Shown: positions 9,420 to 46,020 of the stretch, in pieces
Layout: every line of letters starts with the position of its first letter
Position numbering within the stretch: position 1 is the first letter of the stretch
Assembly: GCA_963702425.1 (NCBI GenBank)
Contig: CAVPCQ010000032.1
Span: 64,001 to 128,000 of the forward strand
DNA from: an uncultured Acidobacteriota bacterium
GTDB lineage: Bacteria > Acidobacteriota > Polarisedimenticolia > J045
Length of the DNA: 64,000 bases
Direction: 5' to 3'
Program-made: the position numbers and the translations under genes
The notes under the pieces: model-generated
Databases searched by the model: none
What the model was told of the DNA's origin: nothing
Seen by the model: only the letters and a program-made list of their open reading frames with translations

Positions 9420-10069
9420 GGCAGGGCTCCCAGGCCGAGCGCGCTGAGAGGCCGCGCGGTCGCGCCTCCGGCGAGCCGCTCCTTGGCGCGCTGGTAGACG
9501 AGGAAGACGTTCCCGCCGCGGTGGTCGAACCCCAGGTCGTCCACCGACAGGACCCGCAGGCCGAGGCTCACCTTGGCGCGGATCGGGTTGAGGGCGGTAT
9601 CGAACGCTTCCTCGGTGATCGAGAAGTCGGTGATCCGGACCGGGACCACGCGGTTCTTGCCCCAGACGAAGAGCACGAGCGGCGACTCCAGCGGCGCGAT
9701 CTCGAGCGTCCCTGCCGCTTGCAGGGAGTTGTTCGCCACGAGGGCATCGGCCGCCGGGTAGACGATCGTCTCGAGCGCCGCGAGCTGGTCCGCGATCCCG
9801 ACCTCGACCGCGGTCCCCGAGCCGAGCTCGAGCTGGTCGGTGGCGTCGATCTCGGCGTCGAGCTTGATCGTCTCGATCGGCGGTCCCTTGAGCCGGAGCG
9901 CTTCCGAGCGGTCTCGCGTCTCCCCGCCGACTCCCTGCGGCTGGAGCGTCCGGGTCAGGGTGTCGGGGGTGTATTGCAGCGCGACCACGCGCCGTACGGC
10001 CCCCGAGCCCGGATCGACGAGGACGAGCCCCGCCTTGAGAACGGGCGGCGAGCCCGGAAAGGTCGTCAT
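9416..10069 (-). CDS. CIS tube-initiator protein (Afp7 N-terminal-like)
   Basis: LQYTPDTLTR and LFVWGKNRVVPVRITDFSITEEAFDTALNPIRAKV motifs. Confidence 0.8.
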   Translation of the reverse strand: MTTFPGSPPVLKAGLVLVDPGSGAVRRVVALQYTPDTLTRTLQPQGVGGETRDRSEALRLKGPPIETIKLDAEIDATDQLELGSGTAVEVGIADQLAALETIVYPAADALVANNSLQAAGTLEIAPLESPLVLFVWGKNRVVPVRITDFSITEEAFDTALNPIRAKVSLGLRVLSVDDLGFDHRGGNVFLVYQRAKERLAGGATARPLSALGLGALP

Positions 10070-35726: not shown

Positions 35727-35919
35727 GGCGCCTCGACCTGGCTCGTGGGGAGGAGAGGTCCTTTCAGCCCGCGTTCCAAAGCGGGACGAGGGTAGCACCG
35801 GCAGGTTCGGAGCGGAGCCCCGCCGGCGTCGTCGGGTCCTGGCACAGTGGGCCTCCCGGTCCTGGCCGCCTGTGACTCGGCATATCTCCGTCCGCGTTGC
35901 CGCTCAGAAAATCACATTC

Positions 35920-36075
35920 CGACGAGCTACTGCGCCGAGTTTTCGCTCTGGACGCCCTCCGCTGCCCGCGCTGCTCGTCCCGCATGGAGGTCCTGGCCCG
36001 GCTCCACCCGCCCGATACGGCCCGCGCGATCCTCGACTGCCTCGGGCTCGCCGCCCGTGCCCCGCCCCGCTACAG
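35920..36075 (+). mobile_element. IS91-like transposase C-terminal remnant
   Basis: ELLRRVFALDALRCPRCSSRMEVLARLHPPDTARAILDCLGL..RAPP; related copy at about 39635-39745. Confidence 0.6.
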
Positions 36076-37341
36076 TCCCGCCGTCCCCGGGTTGAGCCGC
36101 GCGCGATCCATGAGCTCCACCAGGTAGCTGCGCGCCAGCCGCGCGTTCAGCGCCGCCTTGTCCATCACGTCCACCCGGTCCGCCGGCTCCGATGCCAGGG
36201 GCCCCGGTAAGCGCCGAACCACCGGGATGTAGTCCCCCGGGTAGTCGAGCAGGCGCAGGATGTCGACCACCGAGGCGCGCTGCAGGTCGGCGATGCGGAG
36301 TGGCTGCCGCAGCATGGCTTCGCCGAACCATCGCCGCAGCAGGTCCGCCGTGACGTCCACCTTGGCCTGCATCTCGCTCTGCGGGAACGGCATCCCGAAG
36401 GCCCCCTGCCAGAGCTGCAGGATGTCCTGGATCTCCGGGTCGAGCAGGGTGAACGCGAGCGGGCGCTGGCGCAGCTGCGCCTCGAACGCCGCGAGGGCAG
36501 GGACCATCGGCCGGATGGTCGACAGGATGGTCCCGGTGGACACCTGGCCGACGAAGCGCTCACTGCGCGGCCCCGGCGCGGCCCCGCGGGAGTCCACGAT
36601 GAGGATGCGGCGAACGCCCGTGAATCGCTCGGCGAGCGCCGCGATCAGGAAGAGCCGCGTTGACCACCAGGTCGTCGCGAGGTCGATCTTGAGGGCACGC
36701 TGCGTGTCCCCGGCCTCGGTGATGGCCCGCTGGATGCCAAACGAGGCACTGCTGTCGCCGGCCACGCCGGTCGCCGCGTCGAGCGTCGTGGCGGGCTGCA
36801 GGTCCAGCTGGTTGGTGAGCCCCGTCATCGTGATCGCCGCACTCACGCGCGCCTCGAGGTCCGACGGCGTCGTAAACCATGCCACCACGCGCTCCTGTTG
36901 CAGCGCGGTCCGGAGCGTGCGGATCCTCGTCGTATCCGGCTCGCTGCCCACCAGCCCCCGGTCGAACCCGTCAACCAGGCGCGGCGACCAGGGATAGCCC
37001 TCCTCCAGGAGGAAGGCGAGGATCGGGAGCTTCCGGTCCTTCGCCTTGAGGTACTCGTAGTGCGTGATCGAGGTACCGCCCGCTACGGCGCCCGGCACGG
37101 CAGGTGCCGGAGACACGCCCGGGGCCGCGGCCGGCGGCACGTAGCCGTAGCGCCAGGCGAAGATCCCGACGTATGCCTCCGCGCGATCCACCATTTCCAG
37201 CACCTTGGAGAGCGGGGCGGTGGCGCCGGCGGTCATGTCCTCCATGGCGAGGACCTCGTGGCCGAGCTGCCGCAGGATGCGGATGGCGGCGGCGCGGTGC
37301 TCCTGCAGGTCGACAAACGACGATGAGACGAAGACGCGCAT
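36070..37341 (-). CDS. DUF4062 domain protein
   Basis: MRVFVSSSFVDLQEHR, YVGIFAWRYGYVP, SITHYEY. Confidence 0.85.
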   Translation of the reverse strand: MRVFVSSSFVDLQEHRAAAIRILRQLGHEVLAMEDMTAGATAPLSKVLEMVDRAEAYVGIFAWRYGYVPPAAAPGVSPAPAVPGAVAGGTSITHYEYLKAKDRKLPILAFLLEEGYPWSPRLVDGFDRGLVGSEPDTTRIRTLRTALQQERVVAWFTTPSDLEARVSAAITMTGLTNQLDLQPATTLDAATGVAGDSSASFGIQRAITEAGDTQRALKIDLATTWWSTRLFLIAALAERFTGVRRILIVDSRGAAPGPRSERFVGQVSTGTILSTIRPMVPALAAFEAQLRQRPLAFTLLDPEIQDILQLWQGAFGMPFPQSEMQAKVDVTADLLRRWFGEAMLRQPLRIADLQRASVVDILRLLDYPGDYIPVVRRLPGPLASEPADRVDVMDKAALNARLARSYLVELMDRARLNPGTAGL

Positions 37342-37564
37342 GGTCGATTCCTCGCGAGGGGCTGCCTCGAAGCTAGCACGGGTGGGGGCGAGCGGACACT
37401 GGATGATCCCCGCGCCCGTTCTTGACGGCCTCAAACGAATGCGCGCGACGCCTGAAAGCTATCCGACCCTCCCGGCATCTCCTGATGTGCCTCACCAGGC
37501 TCGGCAGCGCTGGCCTCGGCGCATGTTCGCTTGCCCAACCGCGTTCCGGGAGTCCTGACGCGGC

Positions 37565-38360
37565 CTACATCGCCACCTTGAGCCTCGACAAGTCCGCCCG
37601 CGAGATGAACCCCGCGGCCGCACCGAACCAGATCATCCGCGTCTGCCGGTCGTAGACCATGTGCCGCACCGTGTTCCGGTCGCCGGGAATCTCCGTCACG
37701 TTGAAGAACGCCTGCGTCTTCGGGTCGAACCCCACCAGGCGGTTCGGGCGCGCCGGGTTCGCCTCGGCGACCCACACCCGGTCGCGCTCGTCGATCGTCA
37801 TCCCGTACGGCAGCGAGTTCGCCCCGCCGGGGAGCGCCCACTCGTCCACCTTCCCCGTGGCGGGGTCCGGCCGGCCGAGATAGCCGCGCGTGTAGTCGGT
37901 GTAGCAGAGCTTGTCGTCAGAGGAGATCGCGATGCGGCGGTCGCACGTGCGCTCGTTCCCTAACGGGTACGTCGTGAGCTTGAGCCTCGCGGGGTCGAGG
38001 GTCCCGATGGTATTCGTGCCGAAGAGGTCGAACCACGGGTGCCCCTTCGAGTCCATCGCGATGCCATAGCGGCGCGAGCCGGGCTGCGGCATCTTCACGG
38101 GACGGAACTGCTTCGTCGTGACGTCGAGGTGCCCCGCCACGTTCTAGTTCTGGGCGGTGAACCAGATGTTCCCCTGCTTGTCCCACACCATGGTATCCGG
38201 GTCGCGCACGCCATCGGGGATCTCGAAGCGCGTGACCTCGCCCGTGCGGGGATCCAGCCGGCCGGTGGTGCCGTTGGTGTTTCCCGGGTACGACACCATT
38301 CCCTTCGCGTCCACGACGTAGCTGTGGGGATGGGCGTTCTCGTCGCTGCCCTTCCCGCTT
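37565..38360 (-). pseudogene. virginiamycin B lyase (Vgb)-like beta-propeller, 5'-truncated with in-frame TAG at 38144-38146
   Basis: Repeats HPHSYVVDAKG, DKQGNIWFT, YGIAMDSKGHPWF, PYGMTIDERDRVW; two in-frame ORFs separated by one amber codon. Confidence 0.75.
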
Positions 38361-38428
38361 GAAGGTCCTGACGCTGTCCCCACAAATGGCGAATTCGAGT
38401 TCGAGGCCTCCCTGCCGCGGCCGCCGGC

Positions 38429-38659
38429 GTGTGGGCGCGCCGCTTTGGGGTCTCGGAGCGCCAGTCGCGCCGCTACGCCGAGCAGGCGCGCGACGGGGGC
38501 ACGCAGGCCGTCCCGCCGCCGAAGGTCGTCTTCACGGTCAAGCTGCCCGCCGACGCCGTGCGACGGGTCCGGCAGCGGGCGAGAAGTCGGCGGCAAGCGC
38601 TCAGCGCTCTCGTCGAGCAGGTTCTCGCGGACTTCTTGTCCGCGGATCCGGCTGGATGA
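38429..38659 (+). CDS. small HTH/ribbon-helix-helix-like protein upstream of the recombinase (probably 5'-truncated)
   Basis: ARRFGVSERQSRRY...VVFTVKLP...LSALVEQVLADFL. Confidence 0.5.
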   Translation: MWARRFGVSERQSRRYAEQARDGGTQAVPPPKVVFTVKLPADAVRRVRQRARSRRQALSALVEQVLADFLSADPAG

Positions 38660-38784
38660 CGTGGCGGCGGCTCGACGCGTCGCGATCGAGTACGTCTTCG
38701 ACCGGCTGGGCCGGCTGCGCCTCGCCGAGACTGACGAGCTTCTCGTTCCCGAGCGTCGCCGGAGGACCGACGGAGGACAGGATC

Positions 38785-39610
38785 ATGCCGTGTGCAGCGC
38801 TCTACGCACGAGTCTCGACGCTGGGTCAGAAGGAGGAGGAGACGATCGCCAGCCAGACCGCGGAGCTGAAGGAGCAGGCGCGGTCGGCGGGCCTGATCGT
38901 ACCGCCCGAGTGGGTGTTTGAAGACGCGGAGTGCTCGGGTTCCACGCTGATCCGGCCGGCGCTCGAACGGCTTCGCGATCTGGTCGTCCAGGAGCGCGTC
39001 GACGTGATTCTCTGTCACGCGCCGGACCGGCTGGCTCGGCGCTGCGCCTGCCAGGTGCTGCTGATGGAGGAGTTCGCGCGCACCGGGACCGAGGTCCGGT
39101 TCATCAAGGCGCCGCCGACCGCTACATCCGCAAGGGACCGGACAGCCCGGCGCGCTACGAGATCGTCGAACACGACGCACGGATCGTGCGGGAGTTGTTC
39201 CGGCGGTACGCGGAGGGACGGACCTCGCCGCGCGCATTGGGGCGGTGGCTGACCGAGCGTGCGATCCCGACGGGAGCGGGCAGGGCGTTCTGGGACCAAT
39301 CGACGGTGGCTCAGATCCTGCGCAATCCCGCCTGCCGCGGGTGTGTGGCCTTCGGCCGGAGGGCGCCGGTGGACGACCCGCCGCGGGTCACGCCTTCGCG
39401 CCGTCTGGCCGGTGCAAAGGCCGCGCGGCGCTTCGACGACATCCGGCGCTTCTCGGCTCGCCGCACGAAGGAGCCGTGCGAGGCGGCCGCCGGCACGTTG
39501 GTCCTCGAACGCCAGCGCGTCGTCCGACTCGTCGTCCGGGACGTCCTCGTGGACACCGACACCGTGGTCATTCGGCACACGATCCCCGGACTGGACTCGG
39601 GCGGACGACC
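38785..39610 (+). pseudogene. large serine recombinase remnant
   Basis: ALYARVST, SGSTLIRPALERL, DRLAR; frameshift/deletion near 39120; then recombinase-domain WDQSTVAQILRNP. Confidence 0.8.
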
Positions 39611-39634
39611 CGTTTGCCGCTCGTGGGGACCCCG

Positions 39635-39745
39635 TGTTGGCCCAGATCCACCCGCCCGACACCGCCCGCGTGATCCTCGACTGCCTCGGGCTGGCCTCCC
39701 GTGCCCCGCCCCGCACGCCGGCCCGCGCCGAGCCGGACTCGCTCC
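39635..39745 (+). mobile_element. second IS91-like C-terminal remnant
   Basis: VLAQIHPPDTARVILDCLGLASRAPP, near-identical to 35990-36070. Confidence 0.55.
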
Positions 39746-40203
39746 CCTTTCCCGCCAACACCGCCGCGGACTGAACTCCTGGACGAACGCCCCGGCCCAC
39801 GCGGGTCCTGACCACCTGGAGGGTGGATCTCCGCCGCCATGGCGGCCCTCCGCGCGTCCCATCCGGGGCCGCTCTCGCCGCCGCGCAGCGCTCGACCACG
39901 CTCCATCCACGCGGCCGGCCGTTCCCGCCGCTGGCGGCGCACCGACTTCGGCTGGCGTGTCATGAACGCGGCACTCCAGCTGCGCTACCGGGAGTTCCCA
40001 GCCTCCTTCGCTGCGGCGGCTTGAATCTGCTGCCCACTTCTCTTCGGTATGCGGAGAAGTTACAAAGCAATGATTTATCTTCCGGCCGGGGGTGAGTTGC
40101 CCGGGAGGCTTGTCCGCGAAGTCTGCCACGTCCACCACGACGCGTATCGCCGGGCGAACCCCGCCTGTTCGGCGTACGCTCCCCCTCATGAAAGGGGAAA
40201 GAC

Positions 40204-41952
40204 ATGCAAACTCCCAAGGATGGTGGCAAGCCCAAGAATGGTGGAATGCCCGGCAGAAAAATCGAAGTGGGCTCCTTCCGCGGAAAGGAGGTGACGTTCC
40301 TCGCACGCCGGCTGGTGATCCAGCTGGCGGCGTCGGAGGATGAGAAGTTGCTCATGGAATCCGTGGCGACCCTGATGGCCAAGGCCAAGGGCGCACGCGT
40401 GATGCGCGGGCCGAGTGCCACAGGTCGGATCCTGGTCATGCTGCCGGAAGGCCAGAGCGTGATCGAATGGGCCGCACGCTTCTCCGACGAGCGCGCCGTC
40501 GCCTACGCCGAGCCGGACATGCTGGAGCGGCTCCAGATCGTGCCGAACGACACACTGTACTCGAGCCAGTGGAGTCCGGGGATGGTGAATGCGGAGCAAG
40601 CCTGGGACCTCGAGACCGGCAAGACCAATGTGATCATCGGGATCATCGACTCCGGGATCTCCATCACCGGCGGGGCACTGGACCATGACGACCTCAACAC
40701 GCCGGGGCGCTTCGTCCTGGGGACGGACTTCGTGGATGGGGGCACGCCTCGCGACCTGAACGGCCACGGCACACACGTGACGGGGATTGCGGCAGCGATG
40801 GGCGACAACGGCACTGGGATCGCGGGGATGAACTGGGGATCGCAAGTATACATCTGTCGGACGTTCGATGCGGGAGGGAACGGCAGCTCGGCGGACTTTG
40901 CCGACGCCGTCGAGGAGATCACGGATTTCGCCGTGGCCAACGGGCTGAAGGCAGTGATCAACTACAGCGGCGGCGGCGTGGACAACCAGACTAAACAAGA
41001 CGCCGCCACGTACGCGTCGAACAACGGGATGCTCCTGGTTGCGGCGACCGGCAACGACAACGGCGGACCGGTGATCTTCCCGGCCGCGTATTCGACCACG
41101 ATCACGGGAGTCATCGCGGTCGGATCGACGGATTCCAACGACACCGTCTCGGGATTCTCGAACGTTGGACCCGAGGTGACCGTGGTGGCGCCGGGCGGCG
41201 ACATCCTATCGACGACGCCAACCTACAACGTGACCCTCTCGGGCCCGCCGGCCAACCTCGCGCTCAACCACGGCAACCTGAGCGGAACTTCCATGGCGAC
41301 GCCCATGGTCACTGGGTTGGCGGCCTTGATGTGGAGCCGGCACCCCAGCCACACGAATCAGAAGGTCAAGCAGTGCCTGATCGACACGGCCGTCAAGCTG
41401 GGCTCGGGGAACTTCGACAACAGCTGGGGCTTCGGCCGAATCGACGCGTACGCCGCACTCAAGTGCGGAGACTGGATCATGCCCTCGAAGCTAATCCTCT
41501 GCAAGTCGAGGCTGGTCCTCTGCACGTCGAAGCTGAGCACTTGCAGGACGCAGCTGTCCGTCTGCAAGTCGAAGCTGACCATCTGCAGCTCGCAGCTGGT
41601 AATCTGCAAATCGCAGTTGACAGTCTGCAAGTCGCAACTGACGCTCTGCGGAAAGTCGCAGTTGGTTCTCTGCCCAACCAAGTCGTTCCTCGATGCCTGC
41701 CCGGTCAGGTCGGTCCTGGCGGCCTGCCCTTCAGCGGTGGACGCGTGCCCGTCGACGCCCGGAGGATGCGAGTTCGTCGACCCGAGAGAACTTCTGGTCG
41801 ACCCGCTCATCCGGATCGCGGGACTTGAGTACCGGCTTCAGGAGCTCAAGACGGAGCTGTGGTACGGTGCGGGCGCGGCCAAGGCGCCCGATGCCGGCGA
41901 CGACGACGGTTGGTTCGTCCTCGACGACGGTGGCAATATCCACCTCATCTAA
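40204..41952 (+). CDS. S8 subtilisin-like peptidase (propeptide + catalytic domain) fused to a Ser/Cys-repeat putative lanthipeptide precursor tail
   Basis: Propeptide ending YAEPD; triad IIDSG / NGHGTHVTG / SGTSMATP; oxyanion Asn AATGND; then 13 x (S/T)X4C. Alternative start at 40246. Confidence 0.9.
   Translation: MQTPKDGGKPKNGGMPGRKIEVGSFRGKEVTFLARRLVIQLAASEDEKLLMESVATLMAKAKGARVMRGPSATGRILVMLPEGQSVIEWAARFSDERAVAYAEPDMLERLQIVPNDTLYSSQWSPGMVNAEQAWDLETGKTNVIIGIIDSGISITGGALDHDDLNTPGRFVLGTDFVDGGTPRDLNGHGTHVTGIAAAMGDNGTGIAGMNWGSQVYICRTFDAGGNGSSADFADAVEEITDFAVANGLKAVINYSGGGVDNQTKQDAATYASNNGMLLVAATGNDNGGPVIFPAAYSTTITGVIAVGSTDSNDTVSGFSNVGPEVTVVAPGGDILSTTPTYNVTLSGPPANLALNHGNLSGTSMATPMVTGLAALMWSRHPSHTNQKVKQCLIDTAVKLGSGNFDNSWGFGRIDAYAALKCGDWIMPSKLILCKSRLVLCTSKLSTCRTQLSVCKSKLTICSSQLVICKSQLTVCKSQLTLCGKSQLVLCPTKSFLDACPVRSVLAACPSAVDACPSTPGGCEFVDPRELLVDPLIRIAGLEYRLQELKTELWYGAGAAKAPDAGDDDGWFVLDDGGNIHLI
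41485..41769 (+). repeat. 13 tandem coding repeats (21-27 nt) encoding (S/T)-X4-C
   Basis: Examples TCGAAGCTGACCATCTGCAGC / TCGCAGCTGGTAATCTGCAAA / TCGCAGTTGACAGTCTGCAAG. Confidence 0.95.
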
Positions 41953-41973
41953 GTCAAGCAGGAGGACTGTGGT

Positions 41974-43005
41974 GTGAGTGAACTGGGACTGGCCCGGCGG
42001 GCTGCGCGATTCGTGATCACACGTGGGTTGATCTCGCACGAGGAGGTCCATCGCTACGGGATCCGAGCCCGGGACCTATCCCAGTCCAACGGCGTTGCGC
42101 TGGTCGAGTCCGGCAACGGACGAGGCTTCGTGGCGAAGGATATGAGGCCGACGCGCTCGGGGGACCAGGGTTCCCCCGAGCGCGAACTCGGCCTCTACCG
42201 GGCCATCTCGGGCCGGAAGGAGCTCGAGGCCTTCACGCCGCGGTTCCATGGGTACGACGACGGGGAACACATCCTGCTCATCGAGGGCCTTTCGTCGTCT
42301 CGGCGCCTCGATCAGCTCGGCGGCGGGCGAAGCGTGCTGGATCCTGAACTAGCGGGTCGGGTCGGCGCGGCCTTGGGTCTGTGGCACCTGCGTGCGGCGG
42401 CGCTGGACGGTCTGGATCGAGCCGTGATCTGGTTCCTCGGCATCGACGGCGAGAACCGCCTGGCCGTACTCGATGCTGATGCGCGTCTGCGCGAGCTCAC
42501 CCTGAAGATCCTCTCCGACCCAGAGTTGAAGAAGTGCCTGGTGCGCGTGCGTGCCCACTGGACGGACGAGACGGTGATCCACGGCGATGTGCGCTTCGCC
42601 AACGTCATGGTCTGTCCCGCACCGCAAGTCGTTCGCTTCATCGACTGGGAGACCAGCGGGATGGGCGATCCGGCCTGGGACGTGGCGGGCGGCGTCCAGG
42701 AGTATCTGAGCGTAGGGATCGCGGGCGGACATCCGCTGGAGAGTTCGCCGGCCGGAGATCCGGTGGAGGCGTTCCTCAGGCGCTACCGGGAGACGTCTCG
42801 CAGCTCGATGCCGTGGTCGCGCTTCGCGCCCTTCGTCGCGTGCCGCCTGATGATGCGGGCGCTGCAGCTGACGTTGTGGGATGGGGACGCACGGGAGGCG
42901 ACCGAGCAGCACCTGAAACTGGCCGCAGAGATCGGCACAAGGACGGAAAGTCCGTTCGAGCGCGTTCCGCAGGACGACCCGGCACTCCAGTCCACGGACC
43001 AATGA
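41974..43005 (+). CDS. APH/phosphotransferase-family kinase (LanK-like)
   Basis: FVAK, IHGDVRFANVMV, FIDWE, GDPAWDVA. Confidence 0.85.
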   Translation: MSELGLARRAARFVITRGLISHEEVHRYGIRARDLSQSNGVALVESGNGRGFVAKDMRPTRSGDQGSPERELGLYRAISGRKELEAFTPRFHGYDDGEHILLIEGLSSSRRLDQLGGGRSVLDPELAGRVGAALGLWHLRAAALDGLDRAVIWFLGIDGENRLAVLDADARLRELTLKILSDPELKKCLVRVRAHWTDETVIHGDVRFANVMVCPAPQVVRFIDWETSGMGDPAWDVAGGVQEYLSVGIAGGHPLESSPAGDPVEAFLRRYRETSRSSMPWSRFAPFVACRLMMRALQLTLWDGDAREATEQHLKLAAEIGTRTESPFERVPQDDPALQSTDQ

Positions 43006-43937
43006 TCAGCGCCATGCACGGCGATCTCCTCGAAGCGGCTGAGTGGTTGGTCGACCAAACCCTACGCCACGAGGCAGCGAACGAGGGTCCTGACGAGCTG
43101 GCGCTCAGGCTCTACGATTGGTACCTGAATACGTCGCCGCTGCCCAAGCCCACGGGTCCACTGCTCCCCTATGAGCTCAACCTGCCGGCTGCCGTGCGCG
43201 GTGCACACCATGAAACGCCCCGCTTCGAGGGCGGATGGAAGGCGCAGACCGCTTCATCGTGGGGGCGGGTGGTGGCGAACAAGGGAGACGAGACCCGAGT
43301 GCTCGAGCGCAGCGAGTATACGGTTCCCGGCCGACGTGGGTTGCGCGCCCAACACGGCGACGCTCTCCTCGTCTCCCGCTGCTGGGACTGGGTCGACGAG
43401 GAGACCGGATTCTGGCACTACAGGCGCGGGACCTGGCCTCCCCCCGGAGCGGACCGCCTCGTCCGGATCTATTGGAACTGTGTGCCTGCCGAGGCTCCGC
43501 GCGTCATTGCGCAGGTGTCCCTGGTTCTGGGCGCCGCGGCCGATGTCCCGTTCATGGTGAAGACCCCCGCGCGATCCGATCACAACGGACGCGCGGACGC
43601 CGTCGTGAGCTACCTGGGACCCGATGGGTATTCGAGATTCGAGTGCGAGCTCCGAGCGACCGCGGAGTCGCTCGCTGTGTGCCTGCGGCCGCAGACTCCG
43701 CGAATGACGCATCGGCTGGCCCCCGGAGTAGCCCTCACCGAAGGCAAACTGGGCGGAGACAGCTTCGGCGATGTGCGTTGCCGACTCTTGGCCGATACGT
43801 TTTGCGAGGCAAGCGCCGAGGCTCGCCGCTCGGTGCCGCAGCTTGTGGAGAGGATCGGTGCAGACTTCCGAGCGACGGGCCTGGACCCCGCACGCCCATA
43901 CCTCGAGCCAGGGCCGGTTCGTGACTACGACGGTTGA
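43002..43937 (+). CDS. HopA1-like protein (LanY-like phospho-lyase)
   Basis: LVRIYWN, PFMVK, RADAVVSY, GDSFGDVRCRLLA, GLDPARPY; ATGA overlap with the kinase stop. Confidence 0.75.
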   Translation: MISAMHGDLLEAAEWLVDQTLRHEAANEGPDELALRLYDWYLNTSPLPKPTGPLLPYELNLPAAVRGAHHETPRFEGGWKAQTASSWGRVVANKGDETRVLERSEYTVPGRRGLRAQHGDALLVSRCWDWVDEETGFWHYRRGTWPPPGADRLVRIYWNCVPAEAPRVIAQVSLVLGAAADVPFMVKTPARSDHNGRADAVVSYLGPDGYSRFECELRATAESLAVCLRPQTPRMTHRLAPGVALTEGKLGGDSFGDVRCRLLADTFCEASAEARRSVPQLVERIGADFRATGLDPARPYLEPGPVRDYDG

Positions 43938-45408
43938 CTACCTGGCGCTCGCGGGCGGCATCGCGAATCGGCTGTGCGACGAGGCCATCCGCAGCCAGGG
44001 GCGCGCGACGTGGCTCGGCGACGAGAAGGAGAGTTTCGACGGAAGCTGGGAGGTCGTTTGCAAGACCGTCGACGGAGACCTGTACGGTGGCACGGCCGGA
44101 ATCGGCCTGTTCCTCGCCCGGATGGCCGCCGCGACGAAGGACCCTCGTTACCGCACCACAGCGCTCGAGGCCTTGGCCCACGCGACGGAGTGGACGCGGC
44201 GCACTCGATCCCTGGGCACGCTCTACGGCGGAGCGGCGGGCGTAGCAGCTGAGCTGGCGGAAGCCGGAAGGCTGCTCGATGAGCCGGGATTGACGGACGA
44301 GGCCTTTCGTGTCGCAGGCGAGAGCATCGACCACCCACCTCAGGGGGCGAACGACTTGATCTCCGGCCGGGCGGGGTCGATCGTCGCGCTTCTGCACCTC
44401 GCGCGGACGTTGCCCTTCGACGCCGCGTTGGAAGCAGCTCGCGAGCTCGGCGAGCAGATCGTGAAGGCCGCTGTGGGAACGCCATTCCCGGGCGCTGCCT
44501 GGCCATCGGACATCGGGCCGAACGAGCCTCCCCTGTGCGGACTCTCGCACGGTGCCTCGGGTATCGCCTGGGCCCTGGAGGAACTCGCGCTGATCACCGG
44601 AGAGCAACGCTACAGCCAGGTTGCTGCTTCCGCGGCCGCCTATGAACGGGCCTGGTACCAGCGGGAGGAGGGGAACTGGCCGGACCTCCGAGAGTTCACT
44701 CGCGCCAAGCTGGCGCGCGGCGAAGCCCCCGGCTTCCCGATGTTCTGGTGCCACGGTGCCGTCGGGATCGGTCTGGTGCGCCTGCGCCAATTCGAATTGA
44801 CCGGGGAGACGGTCTACGCCGTAGAGGCCGAAGCTGCCATGATGTCCGCCGAGAAACAGATCGCAGAGGTCTTCGAGGCACCGCGAGTCGACCTATCCCT
44901 GTGCCACGGTGTGGCTGGATTCGCTGAACTGTTCCTCGAGGGGGCTCGGGTCTTCGCACAACCGCTCTTGCGTGAGAAGGCGCTGTCCTGCGTCGACTTG
45001 GCGGCGCGCTGTGGGCAAGACGGGGCAGGGCCGTGGCCGTGCGGCATCCCCGACGGTGGCGAGAACCCCAGCCTCATGGTCGGGCTCGCGGGTATCGGGA
45101 TGATGTTCCTCAGAGCGGCCGATTCCAGCGTGCCTTCGGTGGGCCTGCCCTATACTCTACCGATCATGATTCCCCGATTGATCGTCCAGCTCAAAGTCAC
45201 CGAATCGCCGGCCGACCTGCAGGCTCGCGCAGCCGAGGTCGCCGCACTTCTGCCCGGCAGCCGCATAGAACGGATCTCTCGGCGCGGGCGCGTCCTCATT
45301 CGCCTACCCGCGGGTGCATCCGCAGAGTCTGCGGCACGATCGCTTTCCGGCCGCCAGGGAGTGGAGTACGCCGAACCCGACGCCGTGGACCACCAGACTG
45401 GCGAGTAG
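43921..45408 (+). CDS. LanC-like lanthionine cyclase with C-terminal subtilisin-propeptide-like domain
   Basis: LYGGTAGI, GLSHGASGI, WCHGAVG and SLCHGVAG (Zn ligands), LMVGLAGIG; about 80-aa tail ending VEYAEPD. Confidence 0.9.
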   Translation: MTTTVDYLALAGGIANRLCDEAIRSQGRATWLGDEKESFDGSWEVVCKTVDGDLYGGTAGIGLFLARMAAATKDPRYRTTALEALAHATEWTRRTRSLGTLYGGAAGVAAELAEAGRLLDEPGLTDEAFRVAGESIDHPPQGANDLISGRAGSIVALLHLARTLPFDAALEAARELGEQIVKAAVGTPFPGAAWPSDIGPNEPPLCGLSHGASGIAWALEELALITGEQRYSQVAASAAAYERAWYQREEGNWPDLREFTRAKLARGEAPGFPMFWCHGAVGIGLVRLRQFELTGETVYAVEAEAAMMSAEKQIAEVFEAPRVDLSLCHGVAGFAELFLEGARVFAQPLLREKALSCVDLAARCGQDGAGPWPCGIPDGGENPSLMVGLAGIGMMFLRAADSSVPSVGLPYTLPIMIPRLIVQLKVTESPADLQARAAEVAALLPGSRIERISRRGRVLIRLPAGASAESAARSLSGRQGVEYAEPDAVDHQTGE

Positions 45409-45468
45409 GGTTTCGAAGGCGTTGTTGGCTAGATGCATCAAAGAGGCAGGAGTGTGCCTGGCCACTAC

Positions 45469-46020
45469 CCCGTCCGCCTTGCCCTTCAACGAGTTGCGTT
45501 CCGATGCAGGAGATCCGGATCGCCATCATTCAGCCCGCAACCGTCATTCGCTGGCATCGCAAAGGTTTCAGACGGTACTGGCACTGGAAGTCGCGGCGCC
45601 ACGCTGGACGCCCGACCTCAACGGCCAATACCCGCGCTCTCGTCCACCTCATGGCGGCCGAGAATCCGTCGCGGGGCGCGCCGCGATCTCCTCGACCACG
45701 TCATCGTCCTCAACGAGAAGCACCTGCAGCGCCTTGTGGCCTGCTTCGCCTCGTACGGCCTCGACAACCGGACGCACTTGTCCCTGAAGAGGGATGCGCC
45801 CGCGATGCGAGCCGTGGAGTCGAGCCCGCATCCAGCCGCCGAGATCATCGCTCGACCTCGCCTCGGCGGGCTTCATCATCGCTACGCTTGGCGCCGCGCG
45901 GCTTGACGATTCCGCTCGACCCGTCCACCGCCGCGGCCTCGTCGTGGAGCGGCTGTGCCTTTGTGGAAGGCAGACCGTCGCCATCTCTGTCAACCGATGG
46001 GCATGACCGTCCCCGACACA
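45469..46020 (+). mobile_element. degenerate integrase-core IS remnant, copy 2 (inverted relative to 27190-28235)
   Basis: IIQPATVIRWHRKGF, HVIVLNEKHLQRL, RLGGLHHRY; shared flank CCGTCCGC.TTGCCCTTCAA.GAGTTGCGTTCC. Confidence 0.75.

Follow-up and report, generated by a model that had tools for sequence, protein, structure and literature searches.

A subtilisin-type protease with a candidate lanthionine core at its C-terminus in an operon of class V-type lanthipeptide enzymes

Where is the substrate of a set of lanthipeptide-forming enzymes that has no short precursor peptide beside it? This question is raised by a four-gene operon at positions 40204-45408 of a 64,000-nucleotide (nt) stretch of DNA (the window) from contig CAVPCQ010000032.1 of an uncultured Acidobacteriota bacterium (assembly GCA_963702425.1). 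The first gene encodes an S8 (subtilisin-type) protease with a Ser/Thr- and Cys-containing repeat tail, and the following genes encode a kinase, a HopA1-like protein and a LanC cyclase. The initial annotation, made from the sequence alone, proposed that the protease's own tail is the substrate. Comparative genomics strongly supports this proposal: the fusion of protease and tail recurs in other lineages, and all 46 informative loci that carry the tail motif have lanthipeptide enzymes next to it. On these grounds the tail is probably phosphorylated, dehydrated and cyclised by the LanK-, LanY- and LanC-type enzymes while it is attached to the protease.

A four-gene operon with intact genes

The four genes are unbroken, lie on the plus strand in the same orientation and are translationally coupled. 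Gene 1 (40204-41952, 582 amino acids (aa)) and gene 2 (41974-43005, 343 aa) are separated by 21 nt, one less than initially counted, and AGGAGGA precedes gene 2. The other junctions overlap as annotated. The most likely start of gene 3 (43002-43937, 311 aa) is the ATG at 43002, which overlaps the stop of gene 2 as ATGA, and gene 4 (43921-45408) most likely starts at the GTG at 43921, giving an overlap of 17 nt with gene 3. A scan of 39600-45900 for promoters and terminators was uninformative: it gave no promoter-like site, and its 3 terminator-like sites compare with 2.6 expected.

Profile searches matched all four families that had been read from the letters, namely Peptidase_S8, APH, HopA1 and LANC_like. 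In gene 1 the Peptidase_S8 match (PF00082) covers residues 141-411 (E 2.5e-48). The catalytic triad, described as intact in the initial annotation, consists of D149, H188 and S363, and these residues as well as the oxyanion residue N284 are invariant in an alignment of eight orthologues. Since the triad is kept in all eight aligned fusion proteins, the protease itself appears to be under selection. The nearest solved relatives are thermitase and the Ak.1 protease (residues 113-419, E 1e-42 to 2e-39). Because this match begins at residue 113, residues 1-112 (40204-40539) are regarded as the prodomain and residues 113-420 (40540-41463) as the catalytic domain; for the last 160 residues no solved relatives were found. 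A reading of the N-terminal sequence revealed no signal peptide and no hydrophobic stretch, so the protein looks cytoplasmic.

Gene 2 matches the APH family (PF01636; E 5.2e-16, 59.6 bits against a cut-off of 23.2) and carries the motifs HGD...N and IDWE. Its best NCBIfam match is class V LxmK (NF038156) with 47.7 bits against a cut-off of 315, which marks it as related but not as an equivalog. Gene 3 matches HopA1 (PF17914; E 2.1e-20, 73.7 bits against a cut-off of 22.7) and has 11 relatives at 47-59% identity. Its residues R155, K187, R197 and Y204 are invariant with spacings of 32, 10 and 7, which equal those of the catalytic residues R187, K219, R229 and Y236 of CaoY (PMC9486802), so that the likeness is one of spacing. 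The LANC_like match of gene 4 (PF05147; E 1.3e-51) covers a cyclase domain at residues 1-410 (43921-45150), for which the LanM C-terminal cyclase is the best NCBIfam match (243.6 bits). WCHG (276-279), CHG (328-330) and H210 are invariant in seven orthologues; from NisC we take the two motifs to hold the zinc ligands and H210 to be the catalytic acid. As the LanK, LanY and LanC families occur together with apparently intact catalytic motifs, the chemistry of the system would be of the class Vb type.

The repeat tail and the search for another precursor

The proposed lanthionine core spans residues 428-522 of gene 1 (41485-41769) and comprises 13 Ser/Thr-x4-Cys units, each of the 13 array Cys having a Ser or Thr at position -5. 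The first eight units follow the heptad S-x-L-x-x-C-x exactly, Leu occupying position 3. In the last four units sequence and linker length have diverged and the spacing is kept; the array terminates in CPSAVDACPSTPGGC. Altogether 14 of the 16 Cys of the protein fall within its final 164 residues. At the DNA level Tandem Repeats Finder reported a 21-nt period with 7.2 copies at 41498-41649. Behind the array follow 60 Cys-free residues (523-582; 41770-41952 including the stop codon) with a predicted helix, an acidic stretch and a terminal hairpin motif, W-F-x-x-D-D-x-G-x-x-H. Residues W570, F571, D574, D575, G577 and H580 of this follower are invariant in eight fusion proteins, and the motif is confined to the protease-fused branch of the family described below.

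In a public sequencing run from sediment (X1), contigs that match the operon at about 98-99% identity cover it and show scattered single-base differences. The related strain that they represent has one additional in-frame 21-nt unit after 41630, which, read against the window sequence, is one more S-Q-L-T-V-C. In nature the tail thus varies in copy number, and does so in whole units. Gaps in the contig cover of the operon in runs X2, X3 and X5 carry no meaning, and a 2068-nt 'skip' joint in an X2 contig, matched by 20 letters on one side, was too weak to be used.

The tail of the 582-aa protease was the sole core-like sequence found. A six-frame scan of the window for C-x-[ST]-x(2-6) arrays was convincing only in gene 1; four further matches were short stretches in Arg/Ser-rich shadow frames. 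An open reading frame of the kind expected for a class V precursor was neither found in the window nor conserved in related loci, and in the window's own 5.1-Mb assembly (91% complete) the tail and LanY each occur as a single copy. The initial annotation had reported neither a free-standing short precursor nor a transporter beside the operon, and both observations extend to the genes conserved across the fusion loci.

Linkage of the tail to lanthipeptide enzymes

Related loci were fetched by two tail motifs alone, CPSA[VLI]DACP and W[FY][YV][VL]DD[DG]G, with no enzyme gene in the query. Collections of species-representative genomes and of metagenomes yielded 24 confirmed loci each. These 48 loci come from several phyla and are not all independent, since some lineages occur in both collections (L004, L042, L043). 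The repeat gene has LanK as its immediate downstream neighbour in 22 of the 24 genome loci (tblastn with the window's own proteins) and in 23 of the 24 metagenome loci, three of them only with closer kinase queries. In these 45 loci LanY and LanC come next wherever the contig extends. The three exceptions are a canonical class I LanB/LanC cluster (L022) and two contigs that stop inside the repeat gene (L026 and L052), so that lanthipeptide enzymes accompany the tail motif in all 46 informative loci of the 48. Neither of the genomic patterns named in the initial annotation as contrary to its proposal was seen: in no informative locus did the tail motif occur away from lanthipeptide enzymes, and homologous operons repeat the same fusion rather than pairing a separate small precursor with a tail-less S8 protease.

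The protease-tail fusion occurs in 12 lineages with record titles including Planctomycetota and Actinomycetota (window; L004/L042/L043; L006; L007; L008; L009; L011; L018; L044; L045; L049; L051). Carriers of the operon include four cultured Acrocarpospora species and one Nonomuraea strain. In an all-against-all comparison only the four genes and their shadow frames were shared across the fusion lineages (nine stretches).

At the protein level, a word-index search with the tail matched only the query, and an ESM Atlas search gave no usable match. An exhaustive tail-only search returned 101 proteins at E <= 0.001, in which the real relatives form three groups. In the first group, comprising P0015 and two fragments (P0036, P0062), S8 proteases share both the tail and the follower; the second, P0040, is another type of S8 protease whose tail is similar; and the third combines an unannotated N-terminal domain of about 110 aa with many C-x-[ST]-x(3-6) repeats and a terminal CPSAVDACPSAPGGC. 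P0014, P0018, P0019, P0022, P0025 and P0027 were judged by eye to be unrelated low-complexity Cys heptads and disregarded. A genome scan with P0040 gave 14 loci that matched the S8 domain only and were without kinase, lyase, cyclase or tail.

On a metagenome contig (L063:1308-4070) a member of a second, distantly related S8 subfamily bears a Cys-repeat tail and is followed by LanK and LanY. Its S8 domain is 34% identical to the catalytic domain of the window, and it has the same core motif and a diverged follower. Members of this subfamily (L063/P0040) are about 800 aa long, with a long insert and an acidic C-terminal end resembling W-F-D-x-D-D-G. A further metagenome contig holds a tail fragment (L065:3-443) that contains the core motif and is cut at its N-terminus by the contig end; it has two W-I-D-D-x-G copies in place of the single follower hairpin and is followed by LanK, LanY and LanC.

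The core motif was also found in a different lanthipeptide class. The exceptional class I cluster, from a metagenome-assembled genome (MAG) of the Cyclobacteriaceae, comprises four short precursors of the Bacteroidota type, a C39-ABC transporter, LanC, HlyD and LanB. One 95-aa precursor of this cluster (L022:1261-1548) has a Bacteroidota leader, a GG site and an identical CPSAVDACPSAPGGC core. The core motif therefore crosses lanthipeptide classes.

A sister family with protease-less candidate precursors

The third group of relatives forms a sister family with records in Acidobacteriota, Gemmatimonadota, Chloroflexota and Planctomycetota. Its proteins are 230-690 aa long, possess the N-terminal domain of about 110 aa and up to 58 Cys, and are encoded upstream of LanK-LanY-LanC. 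The repeat type, the terminal CPSAVDACPSAPGGC motif and the gene order are those of the fusion type. In contrast, the follower motif is lacking and the sister LanC carries no copy of a protease prodomain. Several sister loci have a separate S8 gene nearby on the opposite strand.

The sister N-terminal domain had no sequence match in Pfam, NCBIfam or PDB. For its structural model (mean pLDDT (predicted local distance difference test) 75.8) the best Foldseek match, to Hcp, was not significant (E 0.034, template modelling score 0.26). A prodomain-like nature of this domain was considered and dropped, since hhalign showed no relationship to S8 or to the S8 prodomain (probability 0.2%). The largest sister protein, of 690 aa, has 58 Cys and 31 S/T-x4-C motifs, and one locus holds two sister genes encoding 690 and 180 aa (L010:7300-9372 and 9480-10022). 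Some members contain the whole core module three times over with Gly-rich spacers in between. Further loci listed for the family are L005, L012-L021 and L023-L027.

With both types at hand the S-x4-C rule of the initial annotation, which is exact in the window protein, proves too narrow for the family as a whole. In eight fusion tails 49% of 99 Cys have a Ser or Thr at -5, compared with 5-25% at other offsets, and in 14 sister proteins the share is 51% of 492 Cys. A Ser or Thr at +2 after the Cys is the steadier feature (64 of 99 in the fusion tails and 257 of 492 in the sister proteins). The Cys-Cys spacing ranges from 5 to 10 with a mode of 7. Since only about half of the Cys follow the -5 rule, S-x4-C would be one ring size among several.

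Phylogenetic trees with 28 rows were computed by a careful search for LanY and by a quick search for LanK, excluding duplicates and partial loci (L001, L004, L042, L046, L047, L048, L049, L056, L060, L062) as well as loci with a kinase below 300 aa or a lyase below 290 aa. In both trees a branch with 100/100 support separates 17 sister rows from nine fusion rows together with L063 and L065. Because the second S8 subfamily of L063 stands on the fusion side, a single origin is possible, and by these trees the protease-fused lineage may have arisen once.

A copy of the protease prodomain on the cyclase

A feature absent from the initial account of the operon is located at the C-terminus of gene 4. 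Residues 411-495 (45151-45408 including the stop codon) match the Fervidolysin_NPro-like prodomain (PF22148; E 4.7e-8, 33.7 bits against a cut-off of 21), and BLASTP aligned 74 aa of the C-terminal 85 residues of LanC with the prodomain of gene 1 at 36% identity (E 4e-11). Both copies share the motif Y-A-E-P-D. According to the prodomain alignment and the thermitase match, the C-terminus of LanC would fall two residues after the position that corresponds to the pro-cleavage site. The copy is present in all eight fusion-type LanC proteins with a complete 3' end (window, L001/L043, L006, L007, L009, L011, L018, L051), the diverged copy of L051 being recognised by profile comparison only (hhalign probability 94.8%). 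It was found in none of the sister-type LanC proteins, which are 408-443 aa long and end just after the cyclase domain.

We propose that the copy is a docking and inhibitory module. A complex of the protease catalytic domain (gene 1 residues 106-425) with the C-terminal domain of LanC (residues 411-495) was modelled. The complex scored 0.89 (median of three runs) and the best control 0.00. The pLDDT of the partner was at least 84, and at least 98% of the contacts agreed between runs. The mark applied here is reached by 58 of 80 solved complexes and by 2 of 110 mismatched pairs, counts that are rough because own alignments were used. The modelled interface includes the active-site residues 149-150, 188-189, 281-284 and 359-364, and LanC residues 485-495 lie on the protease active site. 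The model thus supports binding of the LanC C-terminal domain to the catalytic domain. If the tail is indeed modified by the three enzymes, docking of the prodomain copy on the protease with a block of its active site is, on balance, what we would expect.

Proposed maturation and fate of the tail

In the sequence of events that we propose, the protease would be made in the cytoplasm and process its own prodomain. LanC would then dock on the catalytic domain via its prodomain copy, with its last 11 residues occupying the active-site cleft, which would hold the protease inactive and place the cyclase beside the tail. LanK would phosphorylate Ser and Thr of the 13 units, LanY would eliminate the phosphate to leave dehydro-residues, and LanC would add the Cys five residues downstream, resulting in up to 13 consecutive, non-overlapping thioether rings. 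Once LanC has left, the protease's own tail may become its target. The protease domain would here take the role that the leader peptide has in ordinary lanthipeptides, and cleavage in cis, or directed at the protein itself, might become possible through the fusion. The ring chain or fragments of it may be released, or the chain may stay as a stapled appendage, two outcomes of about equal probability, with release slightly ahead.

Several observations weigh against such a modification of the tail or against details of the scheme. There is no leader peptide ahead of the core, unlike in cacaoidin, where the leader binds LanK (PMC9486802). The distance from Ser to Cys varies across the family, as does the Cys-Cys spacing (5-10); ring size and even ring direction (Cys to the Ser/Thr at +2) would thus not be fixed by the sequence. 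An AlphaFold2 model of the full gene 1 protein, based on eight sequences, was unusable (mean pLDDT 40.2). Because subtilisin-propeptide complexes have already been solved, the favourable docking model may reflect resemblance to them. Moreover, the protease retains its own cis prodomain, so docking of LanC needs prior autoprocessing, which is assumed. Finally, LanY of the operon's type was not found in the 22 genomes of the same family that were searched (completeness 74-100%), and the operon adjoins decayed mobile-element genes. It may have been acquired recently and could be idle, even though none of the four frames is interrupted.

The alternative that survives best is that the tail is stapled and never released. 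An active intracellular protease would then bear a protease-resistant ladder of thioethers as an appendage, with the hairpin at its end as a binding or targeting element and the LanC prodomain mainly as a removable inhibitor. Neither the window nor the conserved gene set shows a transporter or a signal peptide, the invariant triad of the eight aligned fusion proteins fits a working protease, and W-F-x-x-D-D-x-G-x-x-H is conserved beyond the rings, with a diverged form in L063 and P0040. However, an ordinary class I precursor that is exported (L022) has this core motif too, its presence in the protease-less sister proteins suggests a ring chain with a function of its own, and several sister loci have the opposite-strand S8 gene that would be expected for release by cleavage. 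We regard permanent attachment as possible but less probable than not. A bolder form of it is slightly more doubtful, namely that the operon makes a 'lanthi-protein', an intracellular protease with a permanent ladder of up to 13 thioether rings that is gated by a cyclase plugging the active site with a borrowed prodomain. If it were true, the fused and sister types together, with up to 58 Cys per protein, would show lanthionine chemistry acting on protein-sized substrates, far beyond the known seven-ring maximum, and a self-contained, horizontally moving module could have an intracellular role such as defence or regulated proteolysis.

The S8 protein could also be an ordinary LanP-like leader protease with an unrelated appendage, the true small precursor lying elsewhere or having been missed. 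S8 enzymes are the usual leader proteases of lanthipeptide clusters, and unclustered lanthipeptide components are known (PMC8960859). Against this, no other repeat-bearing frame was detected in the window or in the assembly, at most 21 nt of intergenic space is left within the operon, and no fifth gene is conserved across the fusion loci. In addition, the tail motif alone leads to lanthipeptide clusters in every informative locus, and the sister loci, which lack the fused protease, keep the repeats upstream of LanK. A separate precursor is thus very improbable. Slightly less probable again is that the Cys repeat has a structural role (as a disulfide ladder, a metal-binding element or coiled-coil-like heptads) and that the enzymes act on other targets, for example by LanC-like thiol addition to dehydrated phosphoproteins: the strict heptads of the first eight units with Leu at position 3 and the addition of glutathione to protein dehydro-residues by eukaryotic LanC-like proteins speak for it, but a disulfide ladder is unlikely in a cytoplasmic protein without signal peptide, orthologues lose the heptad regularity and keep the pairing of Cys with Ser/Thr, the repeat genes are strictly linked to LanK/LanY/LanC across phyla, and the enzymes co-diversify with the substrate type in the trees.

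Comparison with known systems

The lanthipeptide mSmoA was reportedly characterised by Pei et al. (J Am Chem Soc 2022). This Streptomyces product is an example of class Vb, which is defined by stand-alone LanK (PF01636), LanY (PF17914) and LanC (PMC12291118, PMC11186320, PMC12328550). A LanC cyclase with zinc ligands sets Vb apart from Va. The operon has the same three stand-alone enzyme families, with the zinc motifs of LanC and the residue spacing of LanY preserved. In contrast to class Vb, the candidate substrate is the tail of a 582-aa protease and not a short leader-core peptide, LanC has an extra protease-prodomain copy, and the kinase scores far below the LxmK equivalog cut-off. Class V members are described so far only from actinobacteria in the account of PMC12328550, whereas the family of this operon spans several phyla. 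The 13 candidate tandem rings compare with seven bridges given as the maximum in characterised lanthipeptides (PMC11251773).

With LanP/NisP-type proteases the gene 1 protein shares the S8 fold, the intact triad and its location in a lanthipeptide operon; unlike these, protease and core are one polypeptide without signal peptide. A 2023 review of RiPP (a peptide made on the ribosome and then modified post-translationally) leader proteases (PMC10885120) describes proteases fused to exporters or recognition elements, and its fusion-related passages do not mention fusion to a precursor. The C-terminal domain of LanC resembles subtilisin propeptides of the I9-like/fervidolysin kind in its match to PF22148 and to the operon protease's own prodomain, and its modelled pose appears propeptide-like with a C-terminal strand in the active-site cleft. 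Subtilisin propeptides act as intramolecular chaperones and tight inhibitors. Here the copy is carried by the cyclase and not by the protease. Borosin-type precursors such as OphMA likewise have a large enzyme where a short leader would stand, with the RiPP core at its C-terminus; there the core is attached to the modifying methyltransferase. In the operon the fused enzyme is a protease, and the modifying enzymes are separate.

The initial annotation could not place the architecture in any class known to it. The enzyme set is that of class Vb, which is known; for the fusion with the substrate no published description was found. Likewise, neither a published protease-fused lanthipeptide precursor nor a LanC-prodomain fusion was found in the literature, where a genome-neighbourhood survey in Pei et al. 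2022 or in the supplements of PMC9486802 could already list such clusters, and the tail motif string had no literature match. Judged by these sequence comparisons the chemistry appears to be known, and what would be new is a protease tail with 13 candidate rings as substrate, a prodomain copy on LanC as recognition device, and the wide phyletic spread.

If the proposed modification takes place, the tail would be, as far as our literature search shows, the first RiPP core fused to its own maturation protease. A borrowed protease prodomain replacing a leader-binding element would be a new way of finding a substrate and a possible handle for engineering, and tandem arrays of 13 or more rings would lie well above the seven bridges. 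The cultured Acrocarpospora and Nonomuraea carriers make direct testing possible. Lanthipeptide genome mining usually seeks short precursor open reading frames. A class V survey, for example, collected only open reading frames shorter than 110 residues (PMC9486802), a filter by which substrates fused to large proteins, including the family described here, are missed.

Probable horizontal spread and genomic surroundings

The distribution of the operon points to horizontal spread. In the trees the window pairs with a lineage titled Planctomycetota and then with an Actinomycetes MAG, and not with its own relatives. By comparison, the five best matches of an Acs-like protein of the window (65-68% identity) are all from Acidobacteriota MAGs, a lead to the host phylum from one gene. 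Besides the negative result for the 22 same-family genomes, only a weak match to the operon's LanY type (E 4e-16) was obtained in one of 18 genomes of the same class. Tree placement, LanY distribution among relatives and a split recombinase directly upstream together suggest transfer. The guanine-cytosine content of the first 2 kb of the operon is 63% compared with 66-75% elsewhere in the window, which by itself is too weak to define an island.

The recombinase is a large serine recombinase split over two frames on the plus strand (38359-39965), with the Resolvase N-terminal domain in frame 38359-39252 and the Recombinase domain in frame 38931-39965, and looks like a frameshifted remnant. Two plus-strand open reading frame fragments (35897-36127 and 39259-39774) share a near-identical C-terminal stretch, ...HPPDTAR.ILDCLGL..RAPP, and have no Pfam match. 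This stretch presumably resembles the C-terminus of IS91-family transposases. Possibly the two fragments are repeated mobile-element debris bracketing 36-40 kb.

A PADLOC search gave a generic subtilase model and a weak IetS match for gene 1 and nothing for genes 2-4; a defence role of the operon is speculation. In a Planctomycetota MAG contig a large protein is encoded directly downstream of the LanC-prodomain gene (L001:2400-4204), and by eye its N-terminal part looks like a TIR-type domain, with repeats after it. The region of a DUF4062 (TIR-like) protein is located on the minus strand just upstream of the recombinase remnant in the window (36070-37434 and 37565-38596). Together, the TIR-like neighbour and the DUF4062 genes give a weak hint of a defence-island setting. 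Two adjacent open reading frames in the same region jointly resemble a split beta-propeller of the virginiamycin B lyase type, the second of them by reading.

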